Positions 7,422-49,650 of a stretch of DNA of 64,000 bases are shown here, piece by piece. A model generated the notes under the pieces. The model was not told the DNA's origin. It did no database searches and saw nothing but the letters and a program-made list of their open reading frames with translations. A program made the translations under genes and the position numbers. This stretch comes from an uncultured Thermoleophilia bacterium. GTDB lineage: Bacteria > Actinomycetota > Thermoleophilia > Solirubrobacterales > 70-9. Position 1 is the stretch's first letter. Every line of letters begins with the position of its first letter. Location: the NCBI GenBank assembly GCA_963754225.1, contig CAVWEV010000005.1, positions 282,282 through 346,281 of the forward strand. The letters are read 5' to 3'.

Positions 7422-8410
7422 TCAGCCCTGGCGATCGAACCTCGGCTCGAGGGGCATCGTGGCATTCAGCAACGGCGACGGCACGCTCGGATCGTCCTGA
7501 TCGCAGACGAACAGGAAGTCGATTACCCCCGTATCGACCGCCGCGTCCACGCCCTCGACCTTCCAGCGAGGGTCGATCGTGCGCAGCCGTCGGACTTGGC
7601 CGCCGGCGTCGATCGTTCCGACGACCGAGCCGCGAATGTCGCCCTTCTCGGCGCCTTCCGCGGAGGCGGTGAAGCAGATCAACTCGTCCGTGAGCATCGT
7701 CGCGTCAGAGAAGCAGACGGCACGCCGTCAAGGTCGCCGAGCTCGTAGCCGCGCAGCGACCGCAACTCGCCCGGGGTCACTACCAGGTCCTCGGTGAGGG
7801 TTCGCGACAGGTCGGCGAGCTCGAACTCGGCTACCGCGTTGCGTCCGCCTCCCTCGTTGCCACGGTGAAGCAACCAGAGCCGGTCGCGGAGCACCGCCGC
7901 CCCCTCGATGTTGACCTCGCCACCCAACTCCTCGCGGAGCACGTCGTACACGGGTTGGACGTCGATCGTACGGGCGTCGCCCTGAAGCGAGCCGTCCGCG
8001 GCGAAGGAGCAGAAGAAGCCGCGGTCGCGGCTCGGATTCGAGCCCGAGCCGATTCCGAGCAGGCCCCCGTGGGGCTCGCCCTCGACCGGAGGCAGCGCAG
8101 TCAATGCTTCGAGATCCGGCTTGCGCTCGGCGCGCAGCTCGCCGTCCGCGGGCAGGTCGCCCGGCAACACCTTCAGCGCTCGACCCGGCTCGCCCGCGGC
8201 AATCTCGAAGATCGCCACCTGCAGCAGGTCGTCGCCGATCACGTAGACGAAGTCCCCCCTGCGCACGACGCCGGAAGCGGAAGCCACGTGCGCGGGGACA
8301 CCGTCGTCCGGGGGGTCGCGTAGGTCGAGATCGCGCAGCCGCCGGAGCTCGAGCGGCGGGAGGCTTTCGGGCGTGGCGACGCGGTCGTCCGTGTGACCCG
8401 GATCTGCCAT
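7422..8410 (-). CDS. hypothetical protein (possibly beta-propeller-like); one frame change near 7700
   Basis: Strong RBS GGAAGGAGAG before ATG at 8410 (MADPGHTDDRVATPESL..). Track ORF 7679..8470 continues into 7422..7697 (..LCFSDATMLTDELICFTASAEG..). No confident family. Confidence 0.5.
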
Positions 8411-8543
8411 CTTGATCTCTCCTTCCGAGTGGTTGGCGTCTGTGCCTGGACAATGCCGTCTACCCCGCACTTGGATCGAAAAACCCGCACGCGGCGGCGC
8501 TTCGGTTGTGGCTCCAAAACGGCGCTAGACGCGCCATCCACCA

Positions 8544-10162
8544 CTAGCCCCCGCCCCCCGGCAGCCGCTCCCGGCTTCGCTTGATCGCGCGGCCGAGCCC
8601 GTCGGGGATTCGCGAGCGTAGGTCGAGGGCGCCGGCGCCGAGAACGCGGGCCAGGTGGGCGCCGAGGCGCACGAGCTCGAACCGATCGGCAAGCGAGAGG
8701 TCCGAGAGCTCCGCGTCTCCGCTGCGGACCTCGTCGATGTCGTAGCGGCGCTTGGACTCGACGAAGGACATCGTCCGGCGGACGATCTCGTCGTCGAGGC
8801 CGCAGGCGGGCAATCCCTGGTCGAGCCAGGCGATCGCGCTCTGGTAGCCGAGCGCGAAGTCGCTGACGCGCAGCTCGCGGCTGAGAAAGCCGCCGAAGTC
8901 GCCCATGAACTCGCCTGCCAGCAGGCTGCCGACGTCGCCGTCGGAGCTGTCGGCAAGCAGCCAACGGGGAGATCACGTCGATCGCGACGCGCTCCTTGCC
9001 GACCAGCCCGCCGATCTCGCACAGCGCCCGGCGCAGCAGCTCGGTCGGGCTCGCCGTCCGCCGCGTCCGTGCCGTCGTGCCGCGGTGACGCTCGTCGGCG
9101 CGCATCTCCCGCGCGCTCGGACTCGACCTCCTCGAGGAACTCCCGCAGGCTGGACGCCGCCTCGTCGTCGAGCTCGTCGGCGAGCCGATCGGCGAGCCGC
9201 TCGGCCCACTCGATCCGCGAGTTGTCCTTCTCGATCCGGCGCATGTCGTCGAAGAGGCTCTGCTCGGAGAGGATCGCGAGCGCCCGCGAGGCGCCGGTCT
9301 GCCAGCTCGGCTCGGCGTCCGGGATCGCTCCACCTGTCCAGCGAGGCGTTCTCGGAGCGCGGGTCGATGAGGACGATGGACGCCCGTGCGAGTCCTCGTC
9401 GATCCCGTGCAGCGCGCGGCCGGCGGCGATCACGCGCCCGAGCGGCTGCGCGCCGAGCAGGCCGCCGTCCGTGTACCAGAGGTGGCCGGACTCGGGGAAG
9501 TTCTCGATCCCGTGGCTCTCGTAGGCGTCGGCGTCGGGACGGCGGTCGAGCAGCTGCGGCGCGAACCCGCCCGGGCTCGCGGCGGAGGCGAGGACGAAAT
9601 CGAGCGGCGAGCGGCCCTCGGGCTCGAGTCATCTGCTCGCACCCCGCCGCCCGGCTCGAGCTCGAAGCGCCCCCAGTCGGCGTAGGTGGCGCCGGCATCG
9701 GCGCGTCGCGGCGCAGGCCGCGAATCGGATACGTGAGCCCGCGCAGGCCGGTGACCTGGACGTGCAGCGCGATCGTGCGGTTCTGGCGATACTCGATGTC
9801 GTCGGGGTCGGCTCGGCCGGGCCGTCGGGGTCGAGCACCTCCGGTACGCGCTCGCGCAGCTCGTCGAACGAGAGCAGCGACCGGGAGTCGCGTGCTGCGC
9901 AGGAGCGGCAAGCGTCACCCGCTCGACCCAGGCCTCGTGCAGGAGCGCCTCCGGGATCGAGACCCTCGAGCAGCGCGTGCGCGGTGAAGAAGCTCACCAG
10001 CGCGCCGGCGGAGGCGCCGCCGATCGCGTCGACGTGGCCTCCTGACCCTCCTCGGCGTCGAGGTAGCGCGACGGCGACGGCAAGGCCGGCGGCGGCGCCG
10101 GCCTCATAGGCGCCGAGCGAGGCGCCGCCGGAGAGGGTCAGGTAGAAGCGGAGCGGTCGCAT
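8544..10162 (-). CDS. patatin-like phospholipase; frame disrupted
   Basis: MRPLRFYLTLSGGASLGAYEAG (oxyanion GGxxxG), IGGASAGAL (GxSxG) and YTDGGLLGAQPLG (catalytic Asp-Gly) by my translation. C-terminus in track ORF 8544..8906. Pieces are spread over ORFs 9629..10162, 9430..9918, 8525..9433 and 8544..8906. Confidence 0.7.
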
Positions 10163-10292: not shown

Positions 10293-10421
10293 TCAGAACA
10301 ATCGGATCAGCAGGTTCACCAAGATGGTCAGCGCGATTGAGAGCGCGATTGACCAGACAAGGCAGCCGGGCATGAAGCGCACCTGGGTGCGTTCGCCCGA
10401 TCGCTTCCAGATCGCGATCAT
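10293..10421 (-). CDS. small membrane protein (42 aa), hypothetical
   Basis: Below the track size cutoff. My translation is MIAIWKRSGERTQVRFMPGCLVWSIALSIALTILVNLLIRLF*. It sits directly downstream of the 10435..10635 gene. Confidence 0.3.
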   Translation of the reverse strand: MIAIWKRSGERTQVRFMPGCLVWSIALSIALTILVNLLIRLF

Positions 10422-10434
10422 CTACGGCGTCGCG

Positions 10435-10635
10435 TCAACTTCGAGCGGCCGTCAGAGCGCGACGCAGTGTCCCAACGACGTAGTAGACGGCAAGTGCGAA
10501 GAAGACCCCACCGATCACCGCACGAACCTGCTCGTCCGCCAGCGGGGTCCGCTCGGACACCGGTCCGGCGACGCTCCCGGCAACCTTCTCCCGCCAGCCA
10601 ACAAGTCCCGTCTGAGCAAGCTCAGTGGCGTCCAT
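10435..10635 (-). CDS. small membrane protein, hypothetical
   Basis: Track ORF 10435..10644. ATG at 10635 is preceded by GTGAGGA. One TM segment (VIGGVFFALAVYYVVG). Confidence 0.45.
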   Translation of the reverse strand: MDATELAQTGLVGWREKVAGSVAGPVSERTPLADEQVRAVIGGVFFALAVYYVVGTLRRALTAARS

Positions 10636-10719
10636 CGTCCTCACTTTCGTTCCATCGCGCTCGGTCTGAGACCCCCCGGCCCCTCGGCATCCCGGCAGCC
10701 GGCGGGGCGAGAGTACGCG

Positions 10720-11313
10720 CTACGCCTTCTTAGCCGCCTTGTCAGCGGTCTCGCTCACCGTCTGGACGCTGCTCGCCACGCTGCTCACGCGCTGCCCGAA
10801 CCGATCGGCACGCTTTGCGCCATCGGTAACGGCCCCGGCGATCTTTCGAGCATCGAGATTCTTGAGCTCCTTACCTCGCGGCATCGTCACCCCGAGTACC
10901 TTGCGACGGCGAGAGCGCGCGTTGTTGAGCGCCGCGGCTCCAGCCAATCCGGCAATCGCGACACCACCCGCGATCAGAGGCGTCTTCGCGCGCTTGACGA
11001 AGCCGGCCACACCTTGGGCAGCACTCTGAGCACCTGAAGAGACCGTTTGCGCACCGGAGGACACCGCCCCCGTGACCCCCTCAACCGCGGTCGCTCCGTT
11101 CCCGGAGCGGCTCGAACGCTCCCGCGTGCTTCCGGCAGCCCGCGCGCTCGGCTTCTTTTGCGACGCCTTCCTCTGCGCAGAGCTCCTGCTTTGGCGGGCG
11201 GACCCTCCGCTCGACGAGCGACCACCCGAGCGACCGTTCGAGGCACGCGCCTTCGAGCCGGATTTCGAAGAACCCGACGAACCGCGGCGTTGGGATGTCT
11301 TGGTCTGGGCCAT
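10720..11313 (-). CDS. membrane-anchored protein with Ser/Arg/Lys/Gly-rich disordered N-terminus
   Basis: MAQTKTSQRRGSSGSSKSGSKARASNGRSGGRSSSGG.. followed by TM segment PLIAGGVAIAGLAGAAAL. RBS GAGAGGAAAC before ATG at 11313. The N-terminal style is shared with the genes at 12671..14058 and 14058..15008 and with the tail of 15666..16920. Confidence 0.6.
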   Translation of the reverse strand: MAQTKTSQRRGSSGSSKSGSKARASNGRSGGRSSSGGSARQSRSSAQRKASQKKPSARAAGSTRERSSRSGNGATAVEGVTGAVSSGAQTVSSGAQSAAQGVAGFVKRAKTPLIAGGVAIAGLAGAAALNNARSRRRKVLGVTMPRGKELKNLDARKIAGAVTDGAKRADRFGQRVSSVASSVQTVSETADKAAKKA

Positions 11314-11438
11314 GTTTCCTCTCTTTTGCTGGGAAATCCGTTCTCCGATCACTTACCCGCAGGGAATCGGACTAATCCCTCGTCCCCCGTGGCGTAGATG
11401 TCGAGCGGGCGCGCGGCGAAGCCCGAGCAACTGTTCCC

Positions 11439-11663
11439 CTAGCGCATCCGCAGTGGAACCTCGAACTCCTCGCTGCACTCCTCCGCCACGTCGGCCGCGT
11501 CGAGCAGCTTGTTCGCGAGGTCGCGCGCCTCTTCTACGGTCATGAACTGCCACCTGTGTGGCCGCACCACCGCCACGTCCAGGTTGGCGCCATCTGCGTC
11601 GTGGTGCTCGAACACCGTGACGATGGTCAACTCCCTCGTCGCGGTTTCGGTCGGGTCGGTCAT
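11439..11663 (-). CDS. small acidic hypothetical protein
   Basis: ATG at 11663 after GAGAGGAGGG. Sequence MTDPTETATRELTIVTVFEHHDADGANLDVAVVRPHRWQFMTVEEARDLANKLLDAADV.. Confidence 0.45.
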   Translation of the reverse strand: MTDPTETATRELTIVTVFEHHDADGANLDVAVVRPHRWQFMTVEEARDLANKLLDAADVAEECSEEFEVPLRMR

Positions 11664-11928
11664 CGGTGGTGTCCCTCCTCTCGCTCGCTGCAGGTATCGG
11701 TTCGTGGCGCCAAGTAACGCATGCGACGCGGACGAAGACATCGGCGAGCTCGAGGCTCCTAGATCCGCGCGCTCGCGTCGTCCCTACTAGCCCCCGAGGG
11801 CTCACCTCGGTTGAAGCGGCTCGACGTTCTCCCGCGACATCGCCTACTCCGACAGCCCGGCGGCTTCGAGGGCCCGGTCGCGGGTCGAGTATCGGGGCAC
11901 TCAATCTGGATCTGCTCCGGAGGACTCG

Positions 11929-12216
11929 TCACGACTTCCGCTCCCTTCGGCCCGCGATCATCTCCTGCACCCGGCCGACGCTAGGCCGCGACGGGGAAGC
12001 GGCGTTCCGGCGTGTCCGCCCCGGCTCGCCCGCCCGCTTGCCTTCCCTTCGGGATGTGACGATCTGCTGCACTCGCGAGAGGCTAAGACCGGTTGCGGCG
12101 GCGACGGCTCGGCGGCTCATACCTGCGTCGCTCGCCTTCACGATCAGATCGTCGCGGCGTTTCTTAGCCGCCTCTAGTTGCTCCGAGGCGCGTCTCAACT
12201 GCGTGTCGAACGGCAC
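11929..12216 (-). CDS. small helix-turn-helix protein, hypothetical regulator
   Basis: ..DAGMSRRAVAAATGLSLSRVQQIV.. looks like a sigma-region-4/Xre-style HTH. Track ORF 11929..12216. Confidence 0.45.
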   Translation of the reverse strand: MPFDTQLRRASEQLEAAKKRRDDLIVKASDAGMSRRAVAAATGLSLSRVQQIVTSRREGKRAGEPGRTRRNAASPSRPSVGRVQEMIAGRRERKS

Positions 12217-12353
12217 GTTTAGTTTCCTACACGCACATGGAAGATATGCGCACGCACCGCCGCAGCGGCCGGGCGCGTGGCACCGAAGGGATTAGCTCTG
12301 CAGGCTTGGGCGAAAGCAGCTGATGGGAGACGGAGCACGCGCGAGTCTCGCCG

Positions 12354-12668
12354 CTAGCCGTCCTCGTCCGAGTCAGGTTCTCGCCTCGCTTCGGCATCCT
12401 TTATCTCCGCCGCGGCGCGCCAGCGGACGTGGACGTCGCGGTAGGTAACGCCGGGCTCAACCTCGTCGGGGAGATTCTCCCGCTCGGTGTGTGAGCCTCC
12501 CTCGCCCTCGATCCTCTCCATCGCGCGGGCAAGCTCAGGGTCGATCTCGCTCTCGGCGTGGGTATCCACCTCGACCCGCGGCTTGCGCTTGAACCGCAAG
12601 CGCTTGGCGCTGGCGGCGGCGCCGATCTCGACGTCAGGCTTGCCGGCGCGATCCCGCTCGCGCGCCAC
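12354..12668 (-). CDS. hypothetical charged protein
   Basis: GTG start 3 nt after the upstream stop. Sequence MARERDRAGKPDVEIG..THAESEIDPELARAMERIEGEGG.. No family recognised. Confidence 0.4.
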   Translation of the reverse strand: MARERDRAGKPDVEIGAAASAKRLRFKRKPRVEVDTHAESEIDPELARAMERIEGEGGSHTERENLPDEVEPGVTYRDVHVRWRAAAEIKDAEARREPDSDEDG

Positions 12669-12670
12669 CG

Positions 12671-14058
12671 CTACTCGTCCCTGGCGGCCCTACGCACGTC
12701 CGCCACGGTGATCCGGCCGTCGGGGCCGCTGCCGTCGACGATCGTCGGGATCGACGTCCAGCTCTTCGGCGGTGCGAAGAGCCTTTTCCGTCGCGTTCAG
12801 CTCCTCGGCCTTGCGCTGCTTGCGCCGCTCCCCGACCTCCTTCGCCTTGCGGGTCGCGGCGAGGCCCAGCTCCTTCGCCTCCTCCTTCGTCGCGGCAGAG
12901 AGCTCCTTCGCGACGAGCTTCGCGGCCAGCTTCGCGATCTCGGCGCGGCCGGCCTGAGTCCCTGCGTCGCCGCCGTTGCCGCCACCGCCCCCGACGGACG
13001 CCGGCAGCCGCCTGCTCGAGCTGGCCGGCGGCGCCGCCGACGCCTTGAGCGATCCCACCGACGGCCTCGCCGGCACCTTGACCGACCTCTCCGACCGCTC
13101 GCTCGGCTCCGTGCACGCCTTCGCCCACGCCTTCGGCCGCCTCGCCGACGGCCTCACCCGCCTGGCCGGCCGTATGGCCGACGCCCTGTACGGTCTGATC
13201 GAGGTTGCCGACCGCCTCCCCGGCCCCCTCGCCGACGTCGCCAACGGCTTCGCCGGCGCCCTCGCCGACATCGCCGACCGCCTCGCCGGCGCCCTCGCCG
13301 ACATCACCGACGGCCTGGCCGGCGCCCTTGCCGACGCCGCTCACGGCCCTGCCGGCCCCCTCGCCGATCTCGCCGACGCCCTCTCCGGCCCCCTTGCCGA
13401 TGAACTCGAGGGCGTCCTCGGCGCCCTCGCCGACGTCCTCGACGGCTTCCCCGGCCTCGCCGAGCATGTCGCCGCCGCCGGCGCCGATGTCCTCGACCGC
13501 GGCACCGATGCTCTCGAGCAGCTCAGGATTCCGGTCGAGCGTGGTCATGACGCGGTCGACGATGGCGGCCACATGGTCAAGACGCACCTTCACGAGCGCC
13601 TGCGCCTCCACCCCGCGAATGTCCAGGCGGACGCGTCCGAGGTGGACGTCGACGCCAACCTTCAGCTTGACGAGGTCGAGCACGTATGCGTTCAGCGAAA
13701 CGTGCGCGTCCAGGTTCTCGAGCTCGAAGTGGAGGCTGTCGAGCTTGACGACGGGAACGTCGAGCAGAACGTCGGGAAGCTCGTCGTCGAGCTCCCACGG
13801 GTCCATCTCGGCGTAGTGCTGGTATTCGCGCTCCGCCGCGGTGCCCAGACCCTCCACATTCTTCGCGAAGCGGTACTTCTCGGTCTTCTGCGAGGCTGGA
13901 CGGGAGTCGTCGTCGCGACGCTGCGGGCTCGACCTGTTGGTGCGCTTGGACTGCGGGCGCGTCATGGCTTGCCGCTTGCCCTTGGAGCCGTCCTTTCGGG
14001 AGTTCGCGTTCGAGGCGTTGCCGGTGCTGCGACGCTTTTTCGTTCGCTGGGTGGCCAT
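12671..14058 (-). CDS. repeat protein: basic disordered N-terminus, conserved core, 11-residue Gly/Ala/Val/Glu repeats, PSBD-like C-terminus; two frame changes
   Basis: MATQRTKKRRSTGNASN.. Core DVPVVKLDSLHFELENLDAHVSLNAYVLDLVKLKVGVDVHLGRVRLDIRGVEAQALVKVRLDHV. Repeats GDVGEGAGEAV x3 and variants. After frame changes near 13010 and 12755 it ends ..AEELDVDP.TIVDGSGPDGRITVADVRRAARDE*. Confidence 0.6.
13040..13440 (-). repeat. 33-bp (11-codon) tandem repeats inside the 12671..14058 gene
   Basis: For example, six successive 33-nt units from 13204 to 13401 (..gccgaccgcctcgccggcgccctcgccgacatc..). Confidence 0.85.
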
Positions 14059-15008
14059 CAACTCTCACCTTTACCTTTCTGCTTCCTGGCACGCCCCTGG
14101 CCGGACTGTCCACCCTGAGCGAGGTTGTCGGTCAGCTGCTCGGCACCCTTACCCACGCCCTCGACGCCCCGGCCGGTGCCGCGCCCGACACCGGCGACGC
14201 CGCGCTTGGCGCCCCGTCCGACACCGGCGACGCCGCGCTCGGCGCCTTCACCGATCTCGCCGACGCCTTCGCCGGCGCCTTTGCCCACCTGGCTTACGGC
14301 CTGGCCGGCGCCTTCGCCCACGGGGCCAAGGGCCTTTTTGGTCCCTTCGCCGACGTCCTCGACCGCGTCGCCGGAGTGGTCGAGCAGGTCGCCGGTGCCG
14401 GCGCCCAGCTCCTCGACCGCCTTGCCCACGCTTTGAAGCAGGGCGGGATTGCGATCGAGGCTCAGCAGGACCCGTTCGAGGATCGCCGTTACGTTGTTGA
14501 GCTTCGCCTTGAGGAGCGCCTGGGCCTCGACGCCCTCGATCTTCAGCTCGACCTTGTCGAGCTGCGCCTCGGCCCCCACGCCGATCTTCACCAGCTTGCG
14601 TACCTCGGCGAGCACGGCCACCTGCGCGTGCAGGTCGTCGACCTCGACGTCGATCTCGTCGACCTTGACGACCGGAACGTCGATCAAGACGTCCGGTCCC
14701 CCCGCGATGTCCTTCGGATCGACCACCGAATAGTCCTTGAATTCCTCTCGCTTGCGCTTTCGACGTGAGGAACTGCGGCCGTTGCTCCCCGAGCTCACGG
14801 ACCGCGTCTGGGACGGCCTCACTCGCGCGTGGCCTTCGTCCCCGACGTGTCCCGCCGCTTCCTGCGAGGGGTTCTGCAGCGCCTGAGGCTTCGAGCCCTG
14901 CTTGGAAGAGCCGGACTTCGACGAGCTGCTGCGCTTCGAGCCGCTGCCCGACTTCTTGCTCCCGGACCGCGAGCTCGACTTCTTGCTCGACTTTTTGTTG
15001 GTCGCCAT
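14058..15008 (-). CDS. paralog of the 12671..14058 repeat protein (intact)
   Basis: MATNKKSSKKSSSRSGSKKSGSGSKRSSSS.. Core DVPVVKVDEIDVEVDDLHAQVAVLAEVRKLVKIGVGAEAQLDKVELKIEGVEAQALLKAKLNNV aligns with the neighbour. Repeats VGEGAGQAVSQ/VGKGAGEGVGE. RBS AGGAGA. The stop overlaps the next start (TGATG). Confidence 0.7.
   Translation of the reverse strand: MATNKKSSKKSSSRSGSKKSGSGSKRSSSSKSGSSKQGSKPQALQNPSQEAAGHVGDEGHARVRPSQTRSVSSGSNGRSSSRRKRKREEFKDYSVVDPKDIAGGPDVLIDVPVVKVDEIDVEVDDLHAQVAVLAEVRKLVKIGVGAEAQLDKVELKIEGVEAQALLKAKLNNVTAILERVLLSLDRNPALLQSVGKAVEELGAGTGDLLDHSGDAVEDVGEGTKKALGPVGEGAGQAVSQVGKGAGEGVGEIGEGAERGVAGVGRGAKRGVAGVGRGTGRGVEGVGKGAEQLTDNLAQGGQSGQGRARKQKGKGES
14150..14360 (-). repeat. 33-bp tandem repeats inside the 14058..15008 gene
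   Basis: Consecutive 33-nt units, for example gacaccggcgacgccgcgcttggcgccccgtcc / gacaccggcgacgccgcgctcggcgccttcacc. Confidence 0.8.
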
Positions 15009-15041
15009 CCTGTCTCCTGTTGACTAGTTCTTGCTGGCCGG

Positions 15042-15066
15042 GTACCCGCGAGGGCGAGGGTGAAAC
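15042..15066 (-). promoter_or_regulatory. SigB/SigF-type promoter candidate P1 upstream of 14058..15008
   Basis: Minus strand reads GTTTCA-N13-GGGTAC. The -10 element lies 33 nt upstream of the ATG. Confidence 0.55.
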
Positions 15067-15098
15067 AATTTGCCGCGGATAATCCGCTTGTCGGCCGG

Positions 15099-15123
15099 GT
15101 ACCCGCGGCCGGCGGGGCTAAAC
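15099..15123 (-). promoter_or_regulatory. SigB/SigF-type promoter candidate P2 (tandem to P1)
   Basis: Minus strand reads GTTTAG-N13-GGGTAC. The element GGCCGGGTACCCGCG is duplicated 57 bp from P1. Confidence 0.5.
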
Positions 15124-15164
15124 GAAGCGGCGGAGCGGCGCTTCCTCTCCCGTCGCGCGGCTCC

Positions 15165-15500
15165 TCATCTTGCGGAACGGCGACGCTCCCAGATCGCGGT
15201 GAGGATGCGGGGTGGAAGCAGGGTCACGACCGATCTCCCAACAGCCTCCCAGCTGCTGTCGCTGTCACCTGTCGTGGCCTTCTTCAACAGGGACACGAGC
15301 CGGCGACGGTCCGTGCTGCTCAGGTTCCAGGGCCGACCGCGCCCTTTTCGAACGATGCGTGCGAAGTCCTGGCGCTCCCTCTCGCTGAGCGTCTCGTTCA
15401 CGCGGTCGCGCGCGTTGATCCACAGAGACCTTGCGACCTCCCACACAACCGCCCATGGGACGGCTCGACCGCGGGCCCAAACGCTTTTGATTGAAGGCAT
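15165..15500 (-). CDS. hypothetical protein
   Basis: Track ORF 15165..15575. ATG at 15500 is preceded by GAGGTGG. Sequence MPSIKSVWARGRAVPWAVVWEVARSLWINARDRVNETLSERERQDFARIV.. Confidence 0.4.
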   Translation of the reverse strand: MPSIKSVWARGRAVPWAVVWEVARSLWINARDRVNETLSERERQDFARIVRKGRGRPWNLSSTDRRRLVSLLKKATTGDSDSSWEAVGRSVVTLLPPRILTAIWERRRSAR

Positions 15501-15602
15501 CCAACCCCACCTCGGACTCTCGGACTCAGACTCGCCTGATTCGGCGGATACCCGTGGCCAGACGCTGAAAACCACGCGCCGAGGCGTTCACCGAGCGGGG
15601 CC

Positions 15603-15627
15603 GTTTACAGCATCTGCTCCCGGGTAA
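15603..15627 (+). promoter_or_regulatory. SigB/SigF-type promoter candidate upstream of the SRPBCC gene
   Basis: GTTTAC-N13-GGGTAA, then AAGGAGG RBS and GTG at 15666. Confidence 0.55.
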
Positions 15628-15665
15628 GGGATTAGTTCACCGATATCCAAGGAGGAAAAGAAAAG

Positions 15666-16920
15666 GTGGCCAAGGACATGACAGACATAGGCCAGACGAT
15701 CGGAAGTGCGTTCGGCACGATCGTGCGAGATGCCGCCCAGAGCGTTTCGAGCAACGGGCATAAGGGTCTCTCTGGCAGAGGTACCAACGGAGCGCTTTCG
15801 GGAATTCGGGGGGTAGCCGCTGGCGCCGGGCTTGCCGCCGCGGCCCCGCTCGCCGCGAAGGGAGCCAGCAAGCTCGTCAAGGGCGCCGGCAAGCGCGTCG
15901 CGTCTCCCGCCAAGGACGCGACCGAGAAGGTCGGCGAGAAGGCGAAGGAAGCGGTCGGCGAGAAGGTCGACGACGCAGGCGGCCCGGCGGGCGTCGCCAA
16001 GGAAGCCGGCAAGAGCCTCATACCAGGCGTGGGCGGTAAGGGCGAAGACCAGAAGGGCGGAGGCCAGAAGGGCACCCCCGGCGTCGGCAAGGGTCGGCGG
16101 ATGCCCGTGCAGCAGGCCGTCGACGTGGCCGTGCCGCTACAGACCGCGTACAACCAGTGGACCCAGTTCGAGGAATGGCCTCAGTTCATGCACCGCCTCG
16201 ACCAGGCGACGCAGGAGGACGACGAGAACGTCTCCTTCCGGACGAAGGTCTGGGGCATGTCGAGGGAGTTCGAGGCGCAGATCGTGCAGCAGCGCCCCGA
16301 CGAGCGGATCATGTGGAACGTCAGCCAGGGCGTCCAGCACACGGGGGTCGTCACCTTCCACGAGCTGGCCGACCGCCTGACGCGGATCCAGGTGAGCATC
16401 GACGTGGAGCCGGGCTCGCTGCTCGAGAAGGCGGCGCGCGGGATGCGCCACGTGAAGCGCGCCGTGCGGGCCGATCTGGCCCGGTTCAAGGCGTTCATCG
16501 AGATGCAGGAGGTCGAGACCGGCGCCTGGCGCGGGGTGATCGAGGACGGCGAAGTCGTCCAGGACCATCCCTCGAGCTACGACAAGGGTCGGGATTACGC
16601 CGATTTCGAGGACATCCACGACCGCGAGCACTCGCACACGCCACAGAACGGCTCCGGGAACGGAAGCTCGGCCTCGGGGCGTTCGACGGGATCCAGCCGC
16701 AAGAGCGGCGGTTCGTCGAGCTCCCGTTCGCGAGGCTCCAGCCGGAAGCGCGGCGGCGCCTCGGCGAAGGGCCGTTCGACACGGTCGAGCAAGGGCCGTT
16801 CGACAGGGTCAAGCAGCAAGCGCGGCGGATCGGCTTCCGGGCGGCTCGTCCTCGGGTGGACGCTCCAGGTCCCGCAGCCGTTCCGGCTCCAGCCGAAAGA
16901 CGGCCTCGACGAGGTCGTAG
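15666..16920 (+). CDS. SRPBCC (cyclase/dehydrase-like) domain protein with Gly/Lys-rich N-terminus and Ser/Arg/Gly/Lys-rich tail; one frame change near 16830
   Basis: Core VDVAVPLQTAYNQWTQFEEWPQFMHRLDQATQEDDENVSFRTKVWGMSREFEAQIVQQRPDERIMWNVSQGVQHTGVVTFHELADRLTRIQVSIDVEP is typical of actinobacterial SRPBCC proteins. Tail ..GRSTGSSRKSGGSSSSRSRGSSRKRGG.. continues in the +1 frame to a TAG at 16918-16920. Confidence 0.7.
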
Positions 16921-16945
16921 GGTTGGATGACAGAGGTCAAGGACG

Positions 16946-17089
16946 ATGAGCGATTTCCTGAAGCGCGTCGCGGCTGACCGGATCGGCGGGGACCGGCCTT
17001 CGGCACCCCGCGCGCTGGGGGCCGCCGCTGTCGTAGGAGCGACAGCGGCGGCCCTGACCTATCGGTTGCTCAGGAAGCAGGCGGAGTGA
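16946..17089 (+). CDS. small membrane protein (47 aa), hypothetical
   Basis: Below the track cutoff. My translation is MSDFLKRVAADRIGGDRPSAPRALGAAAVVGATAAALTYRLLRKQAE*. The stop is 1 nt before the next ATG. Confidence 0.35.
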   Translation: MSDFLKRVAADRIGGDRPSAPRALGAAAVVGATAAALTYRLLRKQAE

Positions 17090-17090
17090 A

Positions 17091-17372
17091 ATGTTTGGCA
17101 AGAAGGTAAAAACACCGTCGATCGACGTCGAACGGGTGGTCATGGCCGCGGTCGAGGCTGCGTTCGGTGAGAACGGCTCCGATCGCGATAGCGCGGCGAC
17201 CCGATCCGACTCCGATGCGGGCCACAACCACCGGTTCGGAGCGGTGGCGGCTGTGGCAACCGGTGTTGTGGTCGCGACGGCCGCCCGCGCCGCCTACATG
17301 CGGGTGCGCAACGTGGACCTGGAGCAGGTGGCCGAGGCAGTCGAGCACAAGCTTCAGGACCGCAGCGGCTGA
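17091..17372 (+). CDS. small membrane protein, hypothetical
   Basis: Track ORF 17091..17372. TM segment FGAVAAVATGVVVATAARAAY. Confidence 0.4.
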   Translation: MFGKKVKTPSIDVERVVMAAVEAAFGENGSDRDSAATRSDSDAGHNHRFGAVAAVATGVVVATAARAAYMRVRNVDLEQVAEAVEHKLQDRSG

Positions 17373-19026: not shown

Positions 19027-20423
19027 CTAGCCGAGGACGCGCGCGTCGATCGGATCTCCGAGCGCTATCCCTTCCGAAGTAATGTCGAATTCGCGGATCT
19101 CGGGGTCGTGGGCGCTCCCGCGCGACTTGAGGACCGTCACCGTGCGCAGGAGGCGTGACTCGGCTCGCACGTACTGCACCAGGACGACGTTGTCGGAGAG
19201 GTGGGAGATCCCGTACTCGGCGAGGCGGCCAAGTTCGAAGAGGTCCGGCACCTCGCTGGTCATGATCGAACTTATCCCCGCGCGCGAGAGGCGTTGCGTG
19301 AGCGAGTAAATGAACTCGCGGAAGCGGACCGGATCGGTCGCCGCGTAGTGCAGGTCGCTCAGGCTATCGATCAGCACGCGCGTCGCGCCGGTGGCCTCCA
19401 CAAGGTCGAGCAGCTCGTACACCCATTCGTCGATGTAGACATCGTTGGGAGACCTGTACATGACGGCCACCCGCTCGTCGTCCAGCGACCAGCCGAACCC
19501 TGCGGCGACACGCTGCAGCTGGATAGGGTTCTCCTGCAGGCGTCGCGATCACGCCCTGCTCGCCGCTCGCGGCGCCGTTGAAGATGAAATGGAGTCCCAT
19601 CAACGTCTTGCCCGCACCCGACGGGCCGGCGACGAGAGTGGAGCTACCCTGCCTGTAGCCCTCGGCGAGCATATTGTCGAGCGGCGGGATGCCGGAGGAG
19701 ATTCGGTCTTCGCCGAGCCGATACCCCTCCTGTCTGACGGGGTCGGCGAGCCGGGGAAAGACAGTGATGCCGTCGCTGGAGAGGCGATATCCGTGACGTC
19801 CTGAGAGGTACTCGCCCCCGCGCAGCTTGGTCACCTGAATCAGGCGTAGTGTGCGCTCGTTCGCACGCTCCGTCCCGAGGGCGATGATCCCGTCGGCCAC
19901 GGCGGCCTCCGGCGCCGCGCGCGTCTCTTCGCTCGCTGTACTCGCCTATCCAGAACGAGGTCACGGGGAAGGCCGTGAGCAGCGCGGCGAGGTCGTGCAG
20001 GAAGCGCCGGAAGGCCTGCGCGTCCTGCGCGAACGCGGCCAGCGCCTTGAAGCTGTCGATCGCGATGATCCCCGGCCGCCGCTCCCTGATCAGCACGCCG
20101 ATCCGCTCGGTCACGGCGGTGAGCCCGTCCTCGCCGACCAATGCGCCCCCGAGGTCCTCGTAATAGATCGAGCGGCCGATCGCATGGCGATCGAAGAAGC
20201 TCAGCGTCTGGCCGTAGCGGAGCATCTTCTCGAACGGCTCGGAGACCGTGGAGAAGTAGATCGCAGGGCGCTCCTCGGTCGCGCCCGCGAAGACGAACTG
20301 CTGGGACAGCATGGTTTTTCCCGAGCCGGGCAGCCCGATGATCAGGTTGATCCCGTTCACCGGCAGGCCGCCGCCGAGGATCATGTCGAGCCCCTCGTCG
20401 CCGCTCGTCAGGCGCTCGTCCAC
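19027..20423 (-). CDS. KaiC-like double-domain RecA-superfamily ATPase; two frame changes
   Basis: Domain 1 LIIGLPGSGKTMLSQQF (Walker A) in track ORF 19644..20423. Domain 2 LVAGPSGAGKTLMGLHF in 19364..19900. C-terminus ..VLKSRGSAHDPEIREFDITSEGI.. in 19027..19470. Confidence 0.75.
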
Positions 20424-21097
20424 TAGCGCCTCTCCTCTGCGCCGCGACCGACCAGCGCGCTGGTCCCGAGCAGGTCCTTGACGGTTGAGACGAGCTCGAG
20501 CGGGTCAAATGGCTTCTGCAGAAAGGCATCAGCGCCCGCAGCGAGCGCCTCATCTCTGGCCTCGAGGACGGAGATGGCGAGCACCGGCCCGGCATCGTGG
20601 TCCTTCAATTGCCTGCAGAGCTCCGCTCCGAGACCTCCGGAGATCATCAGCTCCACGATCGCGAGCTGCGGCCGGCTCTCGAGCCAGTGCTCCTCGGCTT
20701 CCCCGACTGCAAGGGCCAGGTTCACTTCGTATCCCTCGGTGCGCAGGAAGAACTGCTCTAGTTCCGCCGCGACAGGATCGCGCTCCGCCAGCAGCACTAG
20801 CACCCGCGTACGACCGCTTGAGCTGGCGTTCACCGGCGGCTGGCCGCCCTGGCTCTGCTCCGATAGCAGTCGGTGGGCGTCGGCGGCCGAGAGCCCGCGC
20901 GCAACCTCCGCCGCGATGAAGCGAAGCTGCTCTACCTGATCGCGGGAGTACAGGCGGTGTCCTCCAGGGCTCCGCTGAGGGACGATCGTCGCGTAGCGCT
21001 CCTCCCAGTTGCGGATCGTCGCGGGCGCAATCCCCAGCATTCGAGCTACTGCCCCAATGCTGTAGACGCCATGGCCAGCGCCAGCTTCGTCAGACAC
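20423..21097 (-). CDS. MerR-family HTH fused to a CheY-like receiver domain (Glu at the phospho-acceptor position)
   Basis: YSIGAVARMLGIAPATIRNWEERY..GHRLYSRDQVEQLRFI (MerR HTH), then RVLVLLAERDP..PQLAIVELMISG..PVLAISV..DAFLQKPFDP (receiver beta1/3/4/5 pattern). The stop overlaps the KaiC-like GTG by 1 nt. Confidence 0.75.
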   Translation of the reverse strand: MSDEAGAGHGVYSIGAVARMLGIAPATIRNWEERYATIVPQRSPGGHRLYSRDQVEQLRFIAAEVARGLSAADAHRLLSEQSQGGQPPVNASSSGRTRVLVLLAERDPVAAELEQFFLRTEGYEVNLALAVGEAEEHWLESRPQLAIVELMISGGLGAELCRQLKDHDAGPVLAISVLEARDEALAAGADAFLQKPFDPLELVSTVKDLLGTSALVGRGAEERR

Positions 21098-21229
21098 CGC
21101 AGTGATGCTATCCGATCGGCCGGATTGGGGAGCTTATGAGTAAGTTCCGACGAGGATTTCCCCCGAGCGATCACGCCCGATTCTCCTCATAACCTCGTCA
21201 GAATCTGCTAGAGTCGGTGCGGTGTTGGA

Positions 21230-22099
21230 GTGGCTTCGAGCCGTCACGCCTCATACAAGCACGGAGTTCGACGCGTGAACCCCGGGACAGTTGTGCGGCC
21301 TAGTGCCCTCACCAACGGTAGGACTCCGCCGTATTCACTGCAGAGGCGGCGCGAGGAGCAGCGACTGCTCGAGGAGTACGCCGACACCCGCGATCCGGCC
21401 GTCCTCGAGGAGCTGGTCGAGCGCTTCCTGCCCCTCGCGAGGCGGCTCGCGTCGCGTTTCCGCGGTGGGACCGAGCCGTTCGAGGACCTCGTGCAGGTCG
21501 CGAGCGTGGGTCTGCTGAACGCGATCACTCGCTTCGACCCGAGTCTTGGATTTGCGTTCACGTCGTTCGCGACGCCGACCATTGTCGGCGAGCTCAAGCG
21601 ACACTTCCGGGATCGCAGCTGGTCGGTATGTGTCGACCGAGGGGCCAAGGACCGCGCTGTCGTGGTCGAGCGGGCGATCGAGCAGCTCACCCAGAGGGAG
21701 GGCCACTCCCCGTCGGTCGCCGAGATCGCGAACTGGACGGAGTTGTCAGCGGAGAAGGTCATCGAGGCGATCGAAGTCGGCCAGGCCCACCGGCCGCACT
21801 CGCTCGACAAACCGGTGGATTCCGATGCCGACGCCGCCGCACTCCTCGACTGCCTGGGCGAATACGACACGTTCTACGACGTCGTCGAGTACGCCGAGGC
21901 AATCGCGCCCGCGCTCGACGAGTTCTCGCCGCGTGACCGACTGGTCCTTCATCTCCGCTTCGTCGAGGACATGACCCAGACCGAGATCGCGGAGCGAATC
22001 GGCGTCTCCCAGATGCAGGTCTCCCGGATCCTCCGGTCCTTGCTTGAGCGGCTTCGCGACCAGGTGCAGGGTTGTGCCGAGGCTCGGACTGCCGGATGA
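21230..22099 (+). CDS. SigB/SigF/SigG-subfamily RNA polymerase sigma factor
   Basis: FEDLVQVASVGLLNAITRFDP..FTSFATPTIVGELKRHFRDRSW (region 2) and LRFVEDMTQTEIAERIGVSQMQVSRILRSLLERL (region 4). The exact start is uncertain; a GTG near 21275 is possible. Confidence 0.8.
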   Translation: MASSRHASYKHGVRRVNPGTVVRPSALTNGRTPPYSLQRRREEQRLLEEYADTRDPAVLEELVERFLPLARRLASRFRGGTEPFEDLVQVASVGLLNAITRFDPSLGFAFTSFATPTIVGELKRHFRDRSWSVCVDRGAKDRAVVVERAIEQLTQREGHSPSVAEIANWTELSAEKVIEAIEVGQAHRPHSLDKPVDSDADAAALLDCLGEYDTFYDVVEYAEAIAPALDEFSPRDRLVLHLRFVEDMTQTEIAERIGVSQMQVSRILRSLLERLRDQVQGCAEARTAG

Positions 22100-23494: not shown

Positions 23495-23773
23495 ATGTGC
23501 TTAGCGATTCCAGGCCAGATACTCGAGATCGTCGATGACGAGAATCGACTCGCGCAGGTGGACGTAGCGGGGGTGCGCCGAAACGTCAACGTCGGCCTCC
23601 TCGACGGCGAGGCCGGTGGGATCGAACCGGGCGACTGGGTGCTGATCCACGTCGGTTTCGCGATCTCGAAGGTGGACGAGGAGGAGGCTCGCGCTACCCG
23701 CGAGCTGCTCGAGGGTATGGGCGCAGACTACGAGCAGGAGCTCGAGGAGCTGAAGGCGAGCGTGATCGAGTGA
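23495..23773 (+). CDS. hypC: hydrogenase maturation chaperone HypC
   Basis: MCLAIPGQILEIV..AQVDVAGVRRNVNVGLL..GDWVLIHVGFAI. Canonical N-terminal Cys and OB-fold pattern. Confidence 0.9.
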   Translation: MCLAIPGQILEIVDDENRLAQVDVAGVRRNVNVGLLDGEAGGIEPGDWVLIHVGFAISKVDEEEARATRELLEGMGADYEQELEELKASVIE

Positions 23774-24003
23774 GCGAGCCGTTCCAGGAGTGCCACGACG
23801 ACCACTGCATCACGTGCGGGGACGTCGCCGAGTCGATGCGCGTCCTCGATGTCGACTCCGCGCGGGCCCTCGCGCTTTGCGAGCTGGACCCAGGAGAGCG
23901 GCAGACCGTCGAGATCGCCCTCGTCGGCCCGGTCGAGGTCGGGGACCGGCTGCTGGTCCACGCCGGGACGGCGATCGCCAGGGCGGAGGAGAGCATCGCG
24001 TGA
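23770..24003 (+). CDS. HypC/HupF-like OB-fold protein with internal CxxC (second copy)
   Basis: ..CHDDHCITCGDVAESMRVLDVD..GERQTVEIALVGPVEVGDRLLVHAGTAIA resembles HypC but has an N-terminal extension in place of Met-Cys. Start and stop both overlap the neighbours by 4 nt. Confidence 0.6.
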   Translation: MSEPFQECHDDHCITCGDVAESMRVLDVDSARALALCELDPGERQTVEIALVGPVEVGDRLLVHAGTAIARAEESIA

Positions 24004-25121
24004 GGTTCGTCGACGAGTTTCGCGACGCCGAGCTCGGCCGGGTGCTCGCCGGCGAGATCGCCGCGGCCGCGGAGCCGGGGCGTCACTACAAGCTGATGGA
24101 GGTATGCGGCGGTCACACACACTCGATCTACAAGTACGGCGTAGACGACCTGCTGCCTGACAACGTCGAGCTGGTGCACGGGCCCGGGTGCCCGGTGTGC
24201 GTGATCCCGATGGGTCGAGTCGACGATGGGATCGCGATCGCCCACGAGGAGAACGTCATCTTCACGTGCTTCGGCGACATGATGCGGGTGCCGGGCTCGG
24301 AGGGGACCCTGCTCGACGCCAAGGCCGAGGGCGCGGACGTGCGGATGGTCTACTCGCCGCTCGACGCGCTTCGAATCGCGAAGTCCAATCCAGAGCGCAA
24401 GGTCGTCTTCTTCGCGATCGGGTTCGAGACCACCGCGCCGTCGACGGCCCTGACCCTCAAGCGGGCGAAGGCCGAGGAAGTCGAGAACTTCCTCTGCATG
24501 TGCAACCACGTGACGATCGTTCCGCCGTTGCGGGCCCTTCTCGACTCGCCCGATCTGCGCCTCGACGGATTCATCGGGCCGGGCCATGTCTCGACGATCG
24601 TCGGCGCGCGTCCGTTCGAGTTCATACCCGCCGACTACGGGAGGCCGCTCGTCACCGCCGGGTTTGAGCCGCTCGACATCCTCCAGGCGATCCTGATGAT
24701 CCTCCGCCAGCTCGCGGACGGCCGCTGCGAAGTCGAGAACCAGTACAAGCGCGTCGTCCCGTACGAGGGAAACCTCCCGGCTCTGGCGGCGATGGCGGAG
24801 GTGTTCGAGCTGCGCCCGCACTTCGAGTGGCGCGGCCTCGGCTTCATCTCGCAGAGCGCGCTGCGGCTCGCGGACTCCTACGCGGACCTCGACGCCGAGC
24901 GCCACTACGAGGTGCCCGGGGTGCGGGTCGCAGATCCAAAGGCGTGTCAGTGCGGAGAGGTGCTGAAGGGCGTGATCAAGCCCTGGGAGTGCAAGGTGTT
25001 CGGAACCGCGTGCACGCCCGAGCACGCGATCGGGACGTGCATGGTCTCCCCGGAGGGCGCGTGCGCCGCCTACTACAACTACGGACGCTACGCTCGCAGG
25101 CGCGAGGCGGTCGCGTCGTGA
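24000..25121 (+). CDS. hypD: hydrogenase maturation protein HypD
   Basis: MEVCGGHTH, GPGCPVCV, FETTAP, GPGHVS and C-terminal CxxxxxxC..CTPEHAIGTCMVSPEGAC. GTG start overlaps the upstream stop. Confidence 0.92.
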   Translation: MRFVDEFRDAELGRVLAGEIAAAAEPGRHYKLMEVCGGHTHSIYKYGVDDLLPDNVELVHGPGCPVCVIPMGRVDDGIAIAHEENVIFTCFGDMMRVPGSEGTLLDAKAEGADVRMVYSPLDALRIAKSNPERKVVFFAIGFETTAPSTALTLKRAKAEEVENFLCMCNHVTIVPPLRALLDSPDLRLDGFIGPGHVSTIVGARPFEFIPADYGRPLVTAGFEPLDILQAILMILRQLADGRCEVENQYKRVVPYEGNLPALAAMAEVFELRPHFEWRGLGFISQSALRLADSYADLDAERHYEVPGVRVADPKACQCGEVLKGVIKPWECKVFGTACTPEHAIGTCMVSPEGACAAYYNYGRYARRREAVAS

Positions 25122-31486: not shown

Positions 31487-32650
31487 ATGGACCGGTCGCT
31501 CGAGAGGCTGCTCGACTCGCTTCTCTACGAGGGCTACGCGCTCTATCCCTACACCCCGGGCGCGACCAAGAACGCGACCCCGACCCCGTTCGGGATCGTG
31601 TACCCGCCCGCGTACGCCGAGCGCAACGACGCGACCTACGACCTGCTGCGGATGGAGTGCATCGTCGAGGCAGCGGGCGACGCTGTGCTGCGCGGGGAGG
31701 TTCGGTTCCTTCAGGCCGAAGGTGAGCGGCACAAGGGAATCGAGCGCCGGGTCGAGATACCCGCGACCGGCGTTGCGGACCTCGAGGCGGAAGGCACCGG
31801 ACAGGGGTTCGGCTTCGATGCGGCCGTCCGGCTCGAGGGCCGGGTCCGGATGCGCGCCACCATGCTCGGCGGCGGGTTGACGCGGATTGCCGTCTGCGTC
31901 CACAACACGACGCCGGTCGAGGGCGACGGGGTGACCGACCGCACGAGCGCGCTGAGCGCCAGCTTGATCTCCACGCATACAGTCGCCGAGATCGAGGGCG
32001 GGCGCTTCATCTCCCCGCTCGAACGCGAGGGAGTCGCCGGAGAAGCAGTCGCCTCGTGCCGCAATTTCAACACGTGGCCGGTGCTGGCGAGCCCCCGCGA
32101 CGACGCCGTTCTGGGAGCGGCGATCCACCTTCCGGATCACCCGTCGATGGCTCCGGAGAGCCTGGGGAACCTCTTCGACTCGACCGAGATCGAGGAGGCG
32201 CTGTTGCTGCACGTGCACGCGCTCTCGGACGACGAGCGTGGAGCGATCGCCGAGCAGGACCCCGCAGTGAAGGAGATGGTCGAGCGGGCGCTGAGCGCCG
32301 GGCGCGAGGACATCTTCTCGCTGCACGGCAGGCTGGAGGAGGTCGTCGCCGAGCCCGGGCATCCGGTCCCCGGCGAGTCCGAGATCGAGGTCGACGGCGT
32401 CACGTTCCGCAAGGGCGGCAAGGTGATCCTGCGGCCGGGCCGGAGTCGCGATGTCTACGACTCGATGCTGGACGGGCGCACCGCGACGATCGAGCGCCTC
32501 TACTACGACAGCGACGGAGATGCTCATATCGCGGTCACCGTCGACGGCGACGCCGCCCAGGGCCTGTTCCGCGAGACCGGCCGCTATCTGTTCTTCCGCG
32601 GTCACGAGGTCGAAGCGGTTCCGGAAAGGAGCAAGGCGACCCATGGGTGA
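31487..32650 (+). CDS. conserved hydrogenase-associated hypothetical protein
   Basis: MDRSLERLLDSLLYEGYALYPYTPGATKNATPTPFGIVYPPAY.. Intact 387 aa. No family recognised. Confidence 0.5.
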   Translation: MDRSLERLLDSLLYEGYALYPYTPGATKNATPTPFGIVYPPAYAERNDATYDLLRMECIVEAAGDAVLRGEVRFLQAEGERHKGIERRVEIPATGVADLEAEGTGQGFGFDAAVRLEGRVRMRATMLGGGLTRIAVCVHNTTPVEGDGVTDRTSALSASLISTHTVAEIEGGRFISPLEREGVAGEAVASCRNFNTWPVLASPRDDAVLGAAIHLPDHPSMAPESLGNLFDSTEIEEALLLHVHALSDDERGAIAEQDPAVKEMVERALSAGREDIFSLHGRLEEVVAEPGHPVPGESEIEVDGVTFRKGGKVILRPGRSRDVYDSMLDGRTATIERLYYDSDGDAHIAVTVDGDAAQGLFRETGRYLFFRGHEVEAVPERSKATHG

Positions 32651-33167: not shown

Positions 33168-33169
33168 TC

Positions 33170-33577: not shown

Positions 33578-33591
33578 GAAAGGAGGGGACG

Positions 33592-34272: not shown

Positions 34273-34280
34273 GGCCATCC

Positions 34281-35486: not shown

Positions 35487-35489
35487 CCC

Positions 35490-43678: not shown

Positions 43679-43703
43679 GTTTCGCGCCGGGCCGATCGGG
43701 TAA
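43679..43703 (+). promoter_or_regulatory. SigB/SigF-type promoter candidate (near-leaderless) for 43715..43954
   Basis: GTTTCG-N13-GGGTAA. The -10 ends 11 nt before the ATG at 43715. Confidence 0.55.
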
Positions 43704-49616: not shown

Positions 49617-49650
49617 GTGCCCTTGCGCCATGAGGTGAGACCCTACCGCG

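Follow-up and report, generated by a model that had tools for sequence, protein, structure and literature searches.

A 64,000-nucleotide stretch of DNA from an uncultured Thermoleophilia bacterium (contig CAVWEV010000005.1, positions 282,282 to 346,281 of the forward strand; hereafter the window, with a G+C content of about 70%) carries between positions 10293 and 17372 a conserved module, which comprises the genes for an SRPBCC protein, TM47, p93, the S/R/G-rich protein SRG197, the paralogs B and A, and the small acidic protein acid104. No description of the core domain family of A and B, of acid104 or of the entire module was found in the libraries and the literature that were searched. Among the module proteins, only SRPBCC and PSBD (peripheral subunit-binding, E3_binding) domains were recognised by Pfam, NCBIfam, PADLOC and PHROGs, and, apart from the SRPBCC protein, they all carry the annotation 'hypothetical'. 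In soil, Thermoleophilia count among the Actinobacteria that are most abundant yet least studied, and the module, which belongs to the small number of multi-gene units conserved throughout the class and is shared with Streptosporangiales, may bear on how these bacteria survive drying and starvation without spores.

The core family and its conservation

The first-pass annotation, made from the letters of the window, had described A and B as paralogs with a common tail, core and repeat array, and had supposed that the core is beta-looking and belongs to a family not described before. These proposals hold. The alignment of A with B covers 212 aa at 47% identity (E 5e-49), and no Pfam, NCBIfam, PADLOC or meaningful PHROG match was found for the core, the Pfam and NCBIfam searches being negative even with distant members. 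A PDB sequence-profile search with the family alignment gave nothing significant, the PADLOC defence models gave 0 matches among six module proteins, and searches of the literature on 11-mer repeats in Actinobacteria or lipid droplets, on SRPBCC and SigF, and on SRPBCC and Conexibacter yielded no description of the core family. When full-length B was modelled by AlphaFold2 from a shallow alignment (47 sequences, 55–96% identical), the result was uninformative (predicted local distance difference test score, pLDDT, 48), and the core modelled from 122 diverse sequences reached a pLDDT of 72, with two strands of about 23 residues forming a long amphipathic hairpin, a short strand and two helices. 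In these 122 sequences, conserved V/L/I/A alternate strictly with charged or polar residues over core positions 23–86, so one face of the hairpin is predicted to be fully hydrophobic and the other charged. A Foldseek search of the core model against the PDB returned no match at E < 1, the best having an E-value of 1.6 and a TM-score of 0.15.

A core profile search of the GTDB species genomes found 526 relatives, of which the best 80 loci were analysed together with two others (82 loci). The best 80 are all from Thermoleophilia metagenome-assembled genomes (MAGs), including Solirubrobacterales, Thermoleophilaceae, Conexibacter and Paraconexibacteraceae, except one bin labelled Acidimicrobiales. 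The succession of B, A (with its PSBD) and acid104 is present in about 75 of the 82 loci, the remaining ones being truncated contigs. The conserved partner acid104 (about 100 aa), which had been overlooked in the first gene set, was found in 76 of them, and the co-conservation of the paralog pair with the SRPBCC gene, proposed earlier as a check, was seen in 53/82, where this gene lies within 10 kb of B/A. By jackhmmer, 55 loci have the C-terminal half of SRG197, 50 have TM47 and 26 have p93, and TM69 was found in one other locus only. SRG197 is directly upstream of B in most relatives, and the usual order is SRPBCC-TM47-p93-SRG197-B-A-acid104 on one strand, of which the window holds a rearranged version. 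Unbiased clustering of all neighbouring ORFs (open reading frames) revealed no further widely shared gene. The helix-turn-helix (HTH) protein and the patatin that had been listed with the locus are present as a weak HTH_23 match (E 3e-4, below cut-off) and a patatin fragment (26.6 bits), and neither is part of the conserved module; together with the ORFs 11439–11741 and 15165–15500 they were rejected as members, since none of them has a counterpart in the 80 related loci, nor do the DUF6929 gene and a Na/Ca exchanger gene. In one Solirubrobacterales MAG (locus L002), two identical 66-aa ORFs stand in tandem directly downstream of the module (12219–12419 and 12661–12861).

Beyond these loci, an exhaustive hidden Markov model search collected 1281 cluster representatives of the family, 988 of them at E ≤ 1e-10, and among these are proteins of two cultured species, Thermopolyspora flexuosa and Streptomyces thermoviolaceus. 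Both the former and one unassigned metagenomic (Logan) contig have a core gene located between an SRPBCC gene and a gene for a protein of about 100 aa. Since this arrangement recurs there and the small neighbour in T. flexuosa (110 aa) is homologous to acid104 (E 4e-10), the trio of SRPBCC, core and small protein is, on comparative grounds, old and widespread in Actinomycetota. The search with acid104 itself yielded 939 homologues without any Pfam domain.

Repeats, charged tails and the PSBD of A

The 33-bp repeats encoding 11 residues, which were noticed at the beginning, were recovered by TRF as two arrays, 13200–13455 (7.8 copies) and 14162–14335, and the protein repeats are 11-mers of the form xxGxGAxxAVx. 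In 251 family members, Gly, hydrophobic and charged residues each show autocorrelation maxima at lags 11, 22 and 33. The hydrophobic moment of the window repeats is maximal at 98 degrees (360 × 3/11), which is the angle of an 11/3 helix and agrees with the amphipathic helices proposed in the first reading; its value there is 0.49 for B and 0.31 for A versus 0.12 and 0.08 for shuffled sequences, and the observed value was reached by 0 of 500 shuffles. On such a helix, positions 3, 4, 7 and 11 (A/G, V/L, V/I and A/T) form a narrow stripe beside two conserved glycines. In their 11-residue tandem repetition and amphipathic-helix pattern, the A/B repeats are like those of late embryogenesis abundant (LEA) group 3. 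The sole sequence matches of the repeats, all weak, are dermcidin (E 0.09 in the PDB profile search), alpha-synuclein (E 2.8) and chlorosome CsmC, and all of these are surface-active amphipathic helices. Matches to CsmC, Ag473 and tape-measure proteins were rejected as an identity for the family, because they fall on the repeats and are compositional; the phage tape-measure matches among the PHROGs (E 1e-5 to 3e-3) cover only the repeats of A, and the surroundings contain no phage genes.

The observation that four proteins carry the same type of S/K/R/G-rich tail is borne out by composition. The fraction of S+G+K+R is 0.49–0.78 in these tails versus 0.25 in seven ordinary genes of the window, and the net charge is +14 to +16 in the tails of B, A and the protein at 10720–11313 and in the C-tail of the SRPBCC protein. 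The N-tails are cationic in 66/66 B and 64/66 A proteins. In the same 66 pairs, the repeats of A are acidic (median net charge −15.5) and those of B near neutral, and the repeat region varies several-fold in length, from 37 to 341 aa in B and from 51 to 390 aa in A. A and B are thus block polyampholytes.

Gene A had been described as a paralog of B, as confirmed above, and as a single ORF, which it is not: the 1388 nt first delimited are not divisible by 3, and an orthologue aligns across three frames, with shifts near 13000 (into the second frame) and 12740 (into the third) that look like two 1-nt insertions. After frame correction, the C-terminus consists of a K/E-rich helix followed by '...ELDVDPTIVDGSGPDGRITVADVRRAARDE', an overlooked PSBD (PF02817, 35 bits versus a cut-off of 23.7) that includes the signature G-[ST]-G-x-x-G-R-I-x-x-x-D-V. 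PF02817 is also found on intact A orthologues, and the C-terminal part of A (K/E-rich helix plus PSBD) is matched in 75 of the 82 loci. No Biotin_lipoyl or 2-oxoacid_dh domain was found in A by the Pfam scan, and the NCBIfam E2 models align only to its linker and PSBD, far below cut-off. Because A lacks the lipoyl domain and the acyltransferase catalytic domain, it is not an E2 or E3BP subunit. The PSBD does not occur in the Streptomyces and Thermopolyspora members of the family. In some Thermoleophilia loci (L072, L073, L075, L076 and L079; protein P0372), a single core gene with a PSBD replaces the B/A pair, which points to an origin of the pair by duplication of an ancestral core gene that carried a PSBD. 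In two distant members (P0345 and P0365), the core is fused to a C-terminal 3-keto-disaccharide hydrolase/DUF1080-type domain (PF06439).

The frame of the SRPBCC tail likewise switches near 16840, and other genes of the window are split as well, namely a KaiC-like gene (19027–20423, three pieces), the patatin gene (8525–10162, about three) and the DUF6929 gene (7422–8410, two). Considering that these genes are broken in the same manner and that the closest relatives come from long-read soil MAGs, the frameshifts in A, the SRPBCC tail and the other three genes are most likely assembly errors, rather than signs of pseudogenes or gene decay. The single-base pattern across many genes suggests an error-prone long-read assembly.

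Partner genes, promoter motifs and surroundings

The features of the locus are collected in Table 1. B, A, acid104, the ORFs 11929–12216 and 11439–11741, SRG197 and TM69 are on the minus strand, and the SRPBCC gene, followed by TM47 and p93, is on the plus strand, divergent from B. This order differs from that in the nearest relatives (L003, L004, L005 and L012, 77–84% nucleotide identity), the SRPBCC block being divergent from B and SRG197 lying downstream in the window; in L012, moreover, acid104 is inverted and upstream. The difference reflects either a recurrent local inversion or a misassembly around the intergenic region with its repeated promoter copies.

Table 1. Positions in the window of the module genes, their parts, the promoter motifs beside them and the nearby sigma factor gene.
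Feature	Position	Strand	Details
TM69, small membrane protein downstream of SRG197	10435..10644	-	Kyte-Doolittle maximum 2.08; weakly conserved
SRG197	10720..11313	-	S/R/G-rich cationic N-tail (+16), one A/G-rich hydrophobic segment, helical C-part
Small ORF	11439-11741	-	
Small ORF	11929-12216	-	weak HTH match
acid104, 104-aa acidic protein	12354..12668	-	motif ERENLPDEVxPGVTYRDVxVxW; placed after A
Paralog A, about 461 aa after frame repair	12671..14058	-	three-frame alignment to the L001 orthologue; frame translations
A, E3-binding/PSBD-like domain	about 12690-12785	-	preceded by K/E-rich helix
A, about 14 acidic 11-residue repeats	13024-13473	-	
A, core	13474-13842	-	
A, cationic N-tail	13843-14058	-	
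Paralog B, 316 aa	14058..15008	-	intact ORF; 1451 homologues, 0 with a Pfam domain
B, eight 11-residue repeats	14133-14393	-	followed by short basic C-tail
B, core	14394-14756	-	
B, cationic S/K-rich N-tail	14757-15008	-	
Tandem SigB/SigF-type motifs (GTTT-N15-GGGTAC) upstream of B	15043-15066, 15100-15123	-	
SigB/SigF-type motif (GTTT-N15-GGGTAA) upstream of SRPBCC gene	15603..15626	+	
SRPBCC protein	15666..16920	+	SRPBCC domain about 16107-16493; uncorrected ORF ends 16949
SRPBCC protein, flanks		+	N-region with A/G-rich hydrophobic stretch; C-tail S/R/G-rich, cationic
TM47, 47 aa	16946..17089	+	A/G-rich hydrophobic segment; after SRPBCC gene
p93, 93 aa	17091..17372	+	one hydrophobic segment
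SigB/SigF/SigG-family sigma gene (context, not module)	21230..22099	+	TIGR02980 254.7 bits, cut-off 234.35

The SRPBCC assignment of the first reading was upheld by PF03364 (E 7e-14, 52.5 bits, cut-off 23.4) and PF10604 (E 1.5e-8, 35.5 bits, cut-off 27.4), and judged by these profile scores 15666–16920 carries a bona fide Polyketide_cyc domain (SRPBCC/START superfamily). Its nearest PDB entry is DR_A0006 (E 0.003), and a search with the domain yields generic names only. The several small hydrophobic proteins reported at the locus are also evident, since the maximum Kyte-Doolittle values over 19 residues are 2.08 for TM69, 1.75 for the protein at 10720–11313, 1.66 for p93 and 1.48 for TM47. SRG197, TM47, p93 and the N-region of the SRPBCC protein each contain one A/G/V-rich hydrophobic stretch of 18–20 residues with basic residues on both sides, a pattern that fits monotopic surface anchors. 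Orthologues of SRG197 and p93 (89 aa) are present in L002 and L001, respectively. Homology of SRG197 to a protein of 248 aa that is encoded upstream of the SRPBCC gene in T. flexuosa is not claimed, because its E-value of 0.21 is non-significant.

The SigB-type promoters inferred from the window by eye are supported by counting. Promoters of Bacillus SigB, mycobacterial SigF and the SigB-like factors of Streptomyces have the consensus GTTT-N14–16-GGGTA, which occurs six times in the window versus 0.09 expected (about 60-fold enriched), with 4/6 in the intergenic region 15009–15665. Its position ahead of the operon is kept in dozens of species: in 76 related loci (1.29 Mb), 42 of the 61 plus-strand motifs precede the B core by no more than 1 kb, and 11 are at +2 to +4 kb, which is the place of the SRPBCC gene in these genomes. 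A sigma gene with the Sigma70 regions r2, r3 and r4 (21230–22099) is located 4 kb from the module and is a candidate regulator, and from the motifs and this gene we infer that the module depends on that sigma factor. Next to it are the frameshifted KaiC-like ATPase gene and a gene for a MerR-type HTH fused to a response-regulator receiver (20423–21097, minus strand), and these genes (19027–22099) may form a signalling unit controlling the stress sigma factor; no RsbW/RsbV-type genes were seen.

The same motif precedes other genes of the window. The ORF 15165–15500 (111 aa, minus strand) stands between the genes for B and the SRPBCC protein; it lacks any family match and has its own motif at 15549–15572, and the DUF6929/DUF6910 gene (7422–8410, minus strand) is preceded by one at 8461–8484 on the same strand. 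The sixth motif (43679–43702, plus strand) stands before an ORF of about 79 aa (43716–43953, plus strand), whose product has a transmembrane segment at its N-terminus and a basic tail of the S/K/R type; near this ORF are a DUF6328 protein (43050–43526) and a 121-aa transmembrane protein with a charged helical region (43974–44339). The genes at 43–44 kb may belong to the same regulon as the module. Elsewhere in the window, hydrogenase maturation genes (23495–25121 and 32451–37557), with hypC and hypD recognised by NCBIfam and further hyp-like genes at 33–37.5 kb read from translations alone, suggest the presence of a [NiFe]-hydrogenase locus.

Possible function and comparison with known systems

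We tentatively favour the explanation that the module is a general-stress (SigB/SigF-type) unit that covers lipid with a protein coat, on neutral-lipid bodies or on the membrane face turned towards the cytoplasm, and its probable mode of action is likely of a known sort, that of amphipathic-repeat stress or lipid-surface proteins. This is based on the combination of a stress promoter, an amphipathic beta element with 11-mer helices, polycationic tails, an SRPBCC partner and hydrophobic anchors. In such a coat, A and B would self-assemble via the long amphipathic beta-hairpin and the two helices, and the disordered 11-residue repeats would turn into long, weakly hydrophobic 11/3 amphipathic helices lying on lipid. 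The polycationic S/K/R tails could bind polyanions, be it nucleic acid, polyphosphate, the head groups of acidic lipids or the acidic repeats on adjacent molecules, a hydrophobic ligand would be supplied or held by the SRPBCC protein, SRG197, TM47 and p93 with their A/G-rich hydrophobic segments would anchor the assembly, and a partner might be recruited via the PSBD of A. The assembly, the lipid binding, the protective role and every interaction are proposed here from sequence and models. SRPBCC is a hydrophobic-ligand fold, and most bacterial START proteins are uncharacterised (PMC13525633).

Several findings weigh against the lipid coat. The repeats of A are strongly acidic and contain 33% G, which disfavours both binding to anionic membranes and stable helices, and the repeats are unstructured in the model of full-length B (pLDDT about 40). 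The clustering of neighbouring ORFs revealed no lipid-metabolism gene conserved beside the module, the patatin gene being specific to the window and the WS/DGAT gene 33 kb off. Caution is therefore needed, as the repeats are acidic, Gly-rich and without predicted structure and no lipid genes are conserved. Moreover, the basic tails that hold in the window and throughout Thermoleophilia are a feature of this class, since distant Streptomyces and Thermopolyspora homologues have acidic or Pro-rich flanks instead; the promoter assignment uses the consensus of Bacillus, Mycobacterium and Streptomyces, which may not be that of this lineage; and the homologues are called 'hypothetical protein' in every named source. 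In favour of the coat, the WS/DGAT gene (wax-ester synthase/diacylglycerol acyltransferase; 48198–49697, minus strand; PF03007 4e-58, PF06974 3e-33), which is not linked to the module, suggests that the bacterium is probably able to synthesise wax esters or triacylglycerol.

Among the other explanations, a cytosolic LEA-like protectant or condensate is possible but doubtful. A and B would coacervate or gel on water loss or an ionic shift and shield proteins and membranes non-specifically, with the SRPBCC and small proteins as clients or nucleators. The opposite charge blocks kept in the 66 pairs, the predicted disorder of repeats and tails, the 11-mer periodicity like that of LEA group 3, the stress-sigma promoter ahead of the module and a repeat number as variable as is typical of intrinsically disordered scaffolds are all in line with it, but it leaves unexplained the conserved, strictly amphipathic folded core and the constant pairing with the SRPBCC and hydrophobic-segment proteins, and an LEA_4 match is absent. 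It is unlikely that the module mainly binds the nucleoid, RNA or polyphosphate, with the four polycationic S/K/R tails tethering nucleic acid or polyphosphate to the scaffold in dormancy, on the model of Dps, HU tails or MLDS. Such a role could draw on the charge of the tails (+14 to +16), on the precedent of MLDS, whose cationic tail binds DNA (PMC5504291), and on the Dps/ferritin and Usp genes in the vicinity of the L001 locus; however, none of A, B and acid104 showed a DNA-binding domain, and because the flanks of distant members are not basic, polyanion binding cannot be the core function of the family.

The PSBD brings in an enzyme scaffold, which we consider quite unlikely, in which the A/B oligomer would capture E3 (dihydrolipoamide dehydrogenase), the 2-oxoacid dehydrogenase E1 or another PSBD-binding enzyme and sequester or relocalise it under stress. 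The domain is above cut-off on A and its orthologues, it is kept in 75/82 loci, and single-gene forms with core and PSBD exist, as in P0372; yet no E1, E3 or any other enzyme gene is conserved nearby, lipoyl and catalytic domains are absent, the Streptomyces and Thermopolyspora members lack the PSBD, and a fold of 35 residues may have been co-opted for another partner. Very unlikely in our view is a self-assembling shell or sheet, as in the gas-vesicle wall, or a membrane beta-barrel pore built from the hairpin. The hairpin is long, strictly alternating and flanked by helices, and the top Foldseek matches, although non-significant, are the pore hairpins of aerolysin and lysenin. Against this, every Foldseek E-value is above 1, A and B have no signal peptide and the polar face is densely charged. 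The likeness to GvpA, suggested by the resemblance of 'VELKIEGVEAQALL' to the GvpA hairpin, was rejected at an hhalign probability of 0.1%, and neither a Gas_vesicle Pfam match nor gvp genes, including the accessory ones, were found in the neighbourhood.

A bolder version of the lipid coat, which we regard as rather unlikely, is that the A/B core is a new fold class, a self-assembling amphipathic beta-hairpin, which with the SRPBCC protein, acid104 and the anchors builds an unseen stress-induced intracellular structure in Actinobacteria, the PSBD recruiting a metabolic enzyme; such a structure would be an organelle-like body or a coat of protein and lipid, and would amount to an 'apolipoprotein plus perilipin' system of bacteria. 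If the lipid coat proves true, the module would be an independently evolved bacterial counterpart of the perilipin, apolipoprotein and LEA repeat proteins with a new folded assembly domain added. The function is directly testable in the cultured hosts T. flexuosa and S. thermoviolaceus.

Compared with known systems, A and B resemble perilipin (Plin4), apolipoprotein and alpha-synuclein in their tandem 11-mers, the moment at 98 degrees, the narrow V/A/G/T stripe and the variable repeat number, and the repeats of those proteins are disordered when free, as predicted for A and B. As Plin4 shows, neutral lipid can be coated by long helices of weak hydrophobicity (PMC5889406). Unlike these proteins, A and B have two conserved glycines per repeat and an attached folded beta-hairpin core, the repeats of A are strongly acidic, and both are bacterial and lie within a multi-gene module; no Perilipin, Apolipoprotein or Synuclein Pfam match was found in them, and the PDB profile match to alpha-synuclein (E 2.8) is no sign of homology. 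With LEA group 3 they have in common the 11-mer periodicity, the disorder and a stress-linked expression, the last being deduced for A and B from the promoter motif, but Pfam scans of both proteins gave no LEA_4 (PF02987) match at E ≤ 0.1, and A and B differ in having a Gly-rich consensus poor in Lys and Thr, a folded core that is conserved, and partner genes of their own. MLDS, a lipid-droplet protein of Rhodococcus, has an apolipoprotein-like motif together with a cationic tail that binds DNA, and it promotes survival during stress (PMC5504291). MLDS/TadA and the module are both actinobacterial and both join an amphipathic part to a polycationic tail, which makes them functional analogues in this respect; MLDS has C-terminal PAKKA motifs and an XRE-type regulator as partner, whereas the module has partners of the SRPBCC and acid104 type. 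The helix-grip domain of SRPBCC/START members such as Deinococcus DR_A0006 and M. tuberculosis Rv0164 is shared by 15666–16920, which differs from them by its long disordered flanks, N-terminal hydrophobic stretch and cationic S/R tail. Finally, the E2 chains of 2-oxoacid dehydrogenases have the PSBD in common with A, but their lipoyl and acyltransferase catalytic domains have no counterpart in it.

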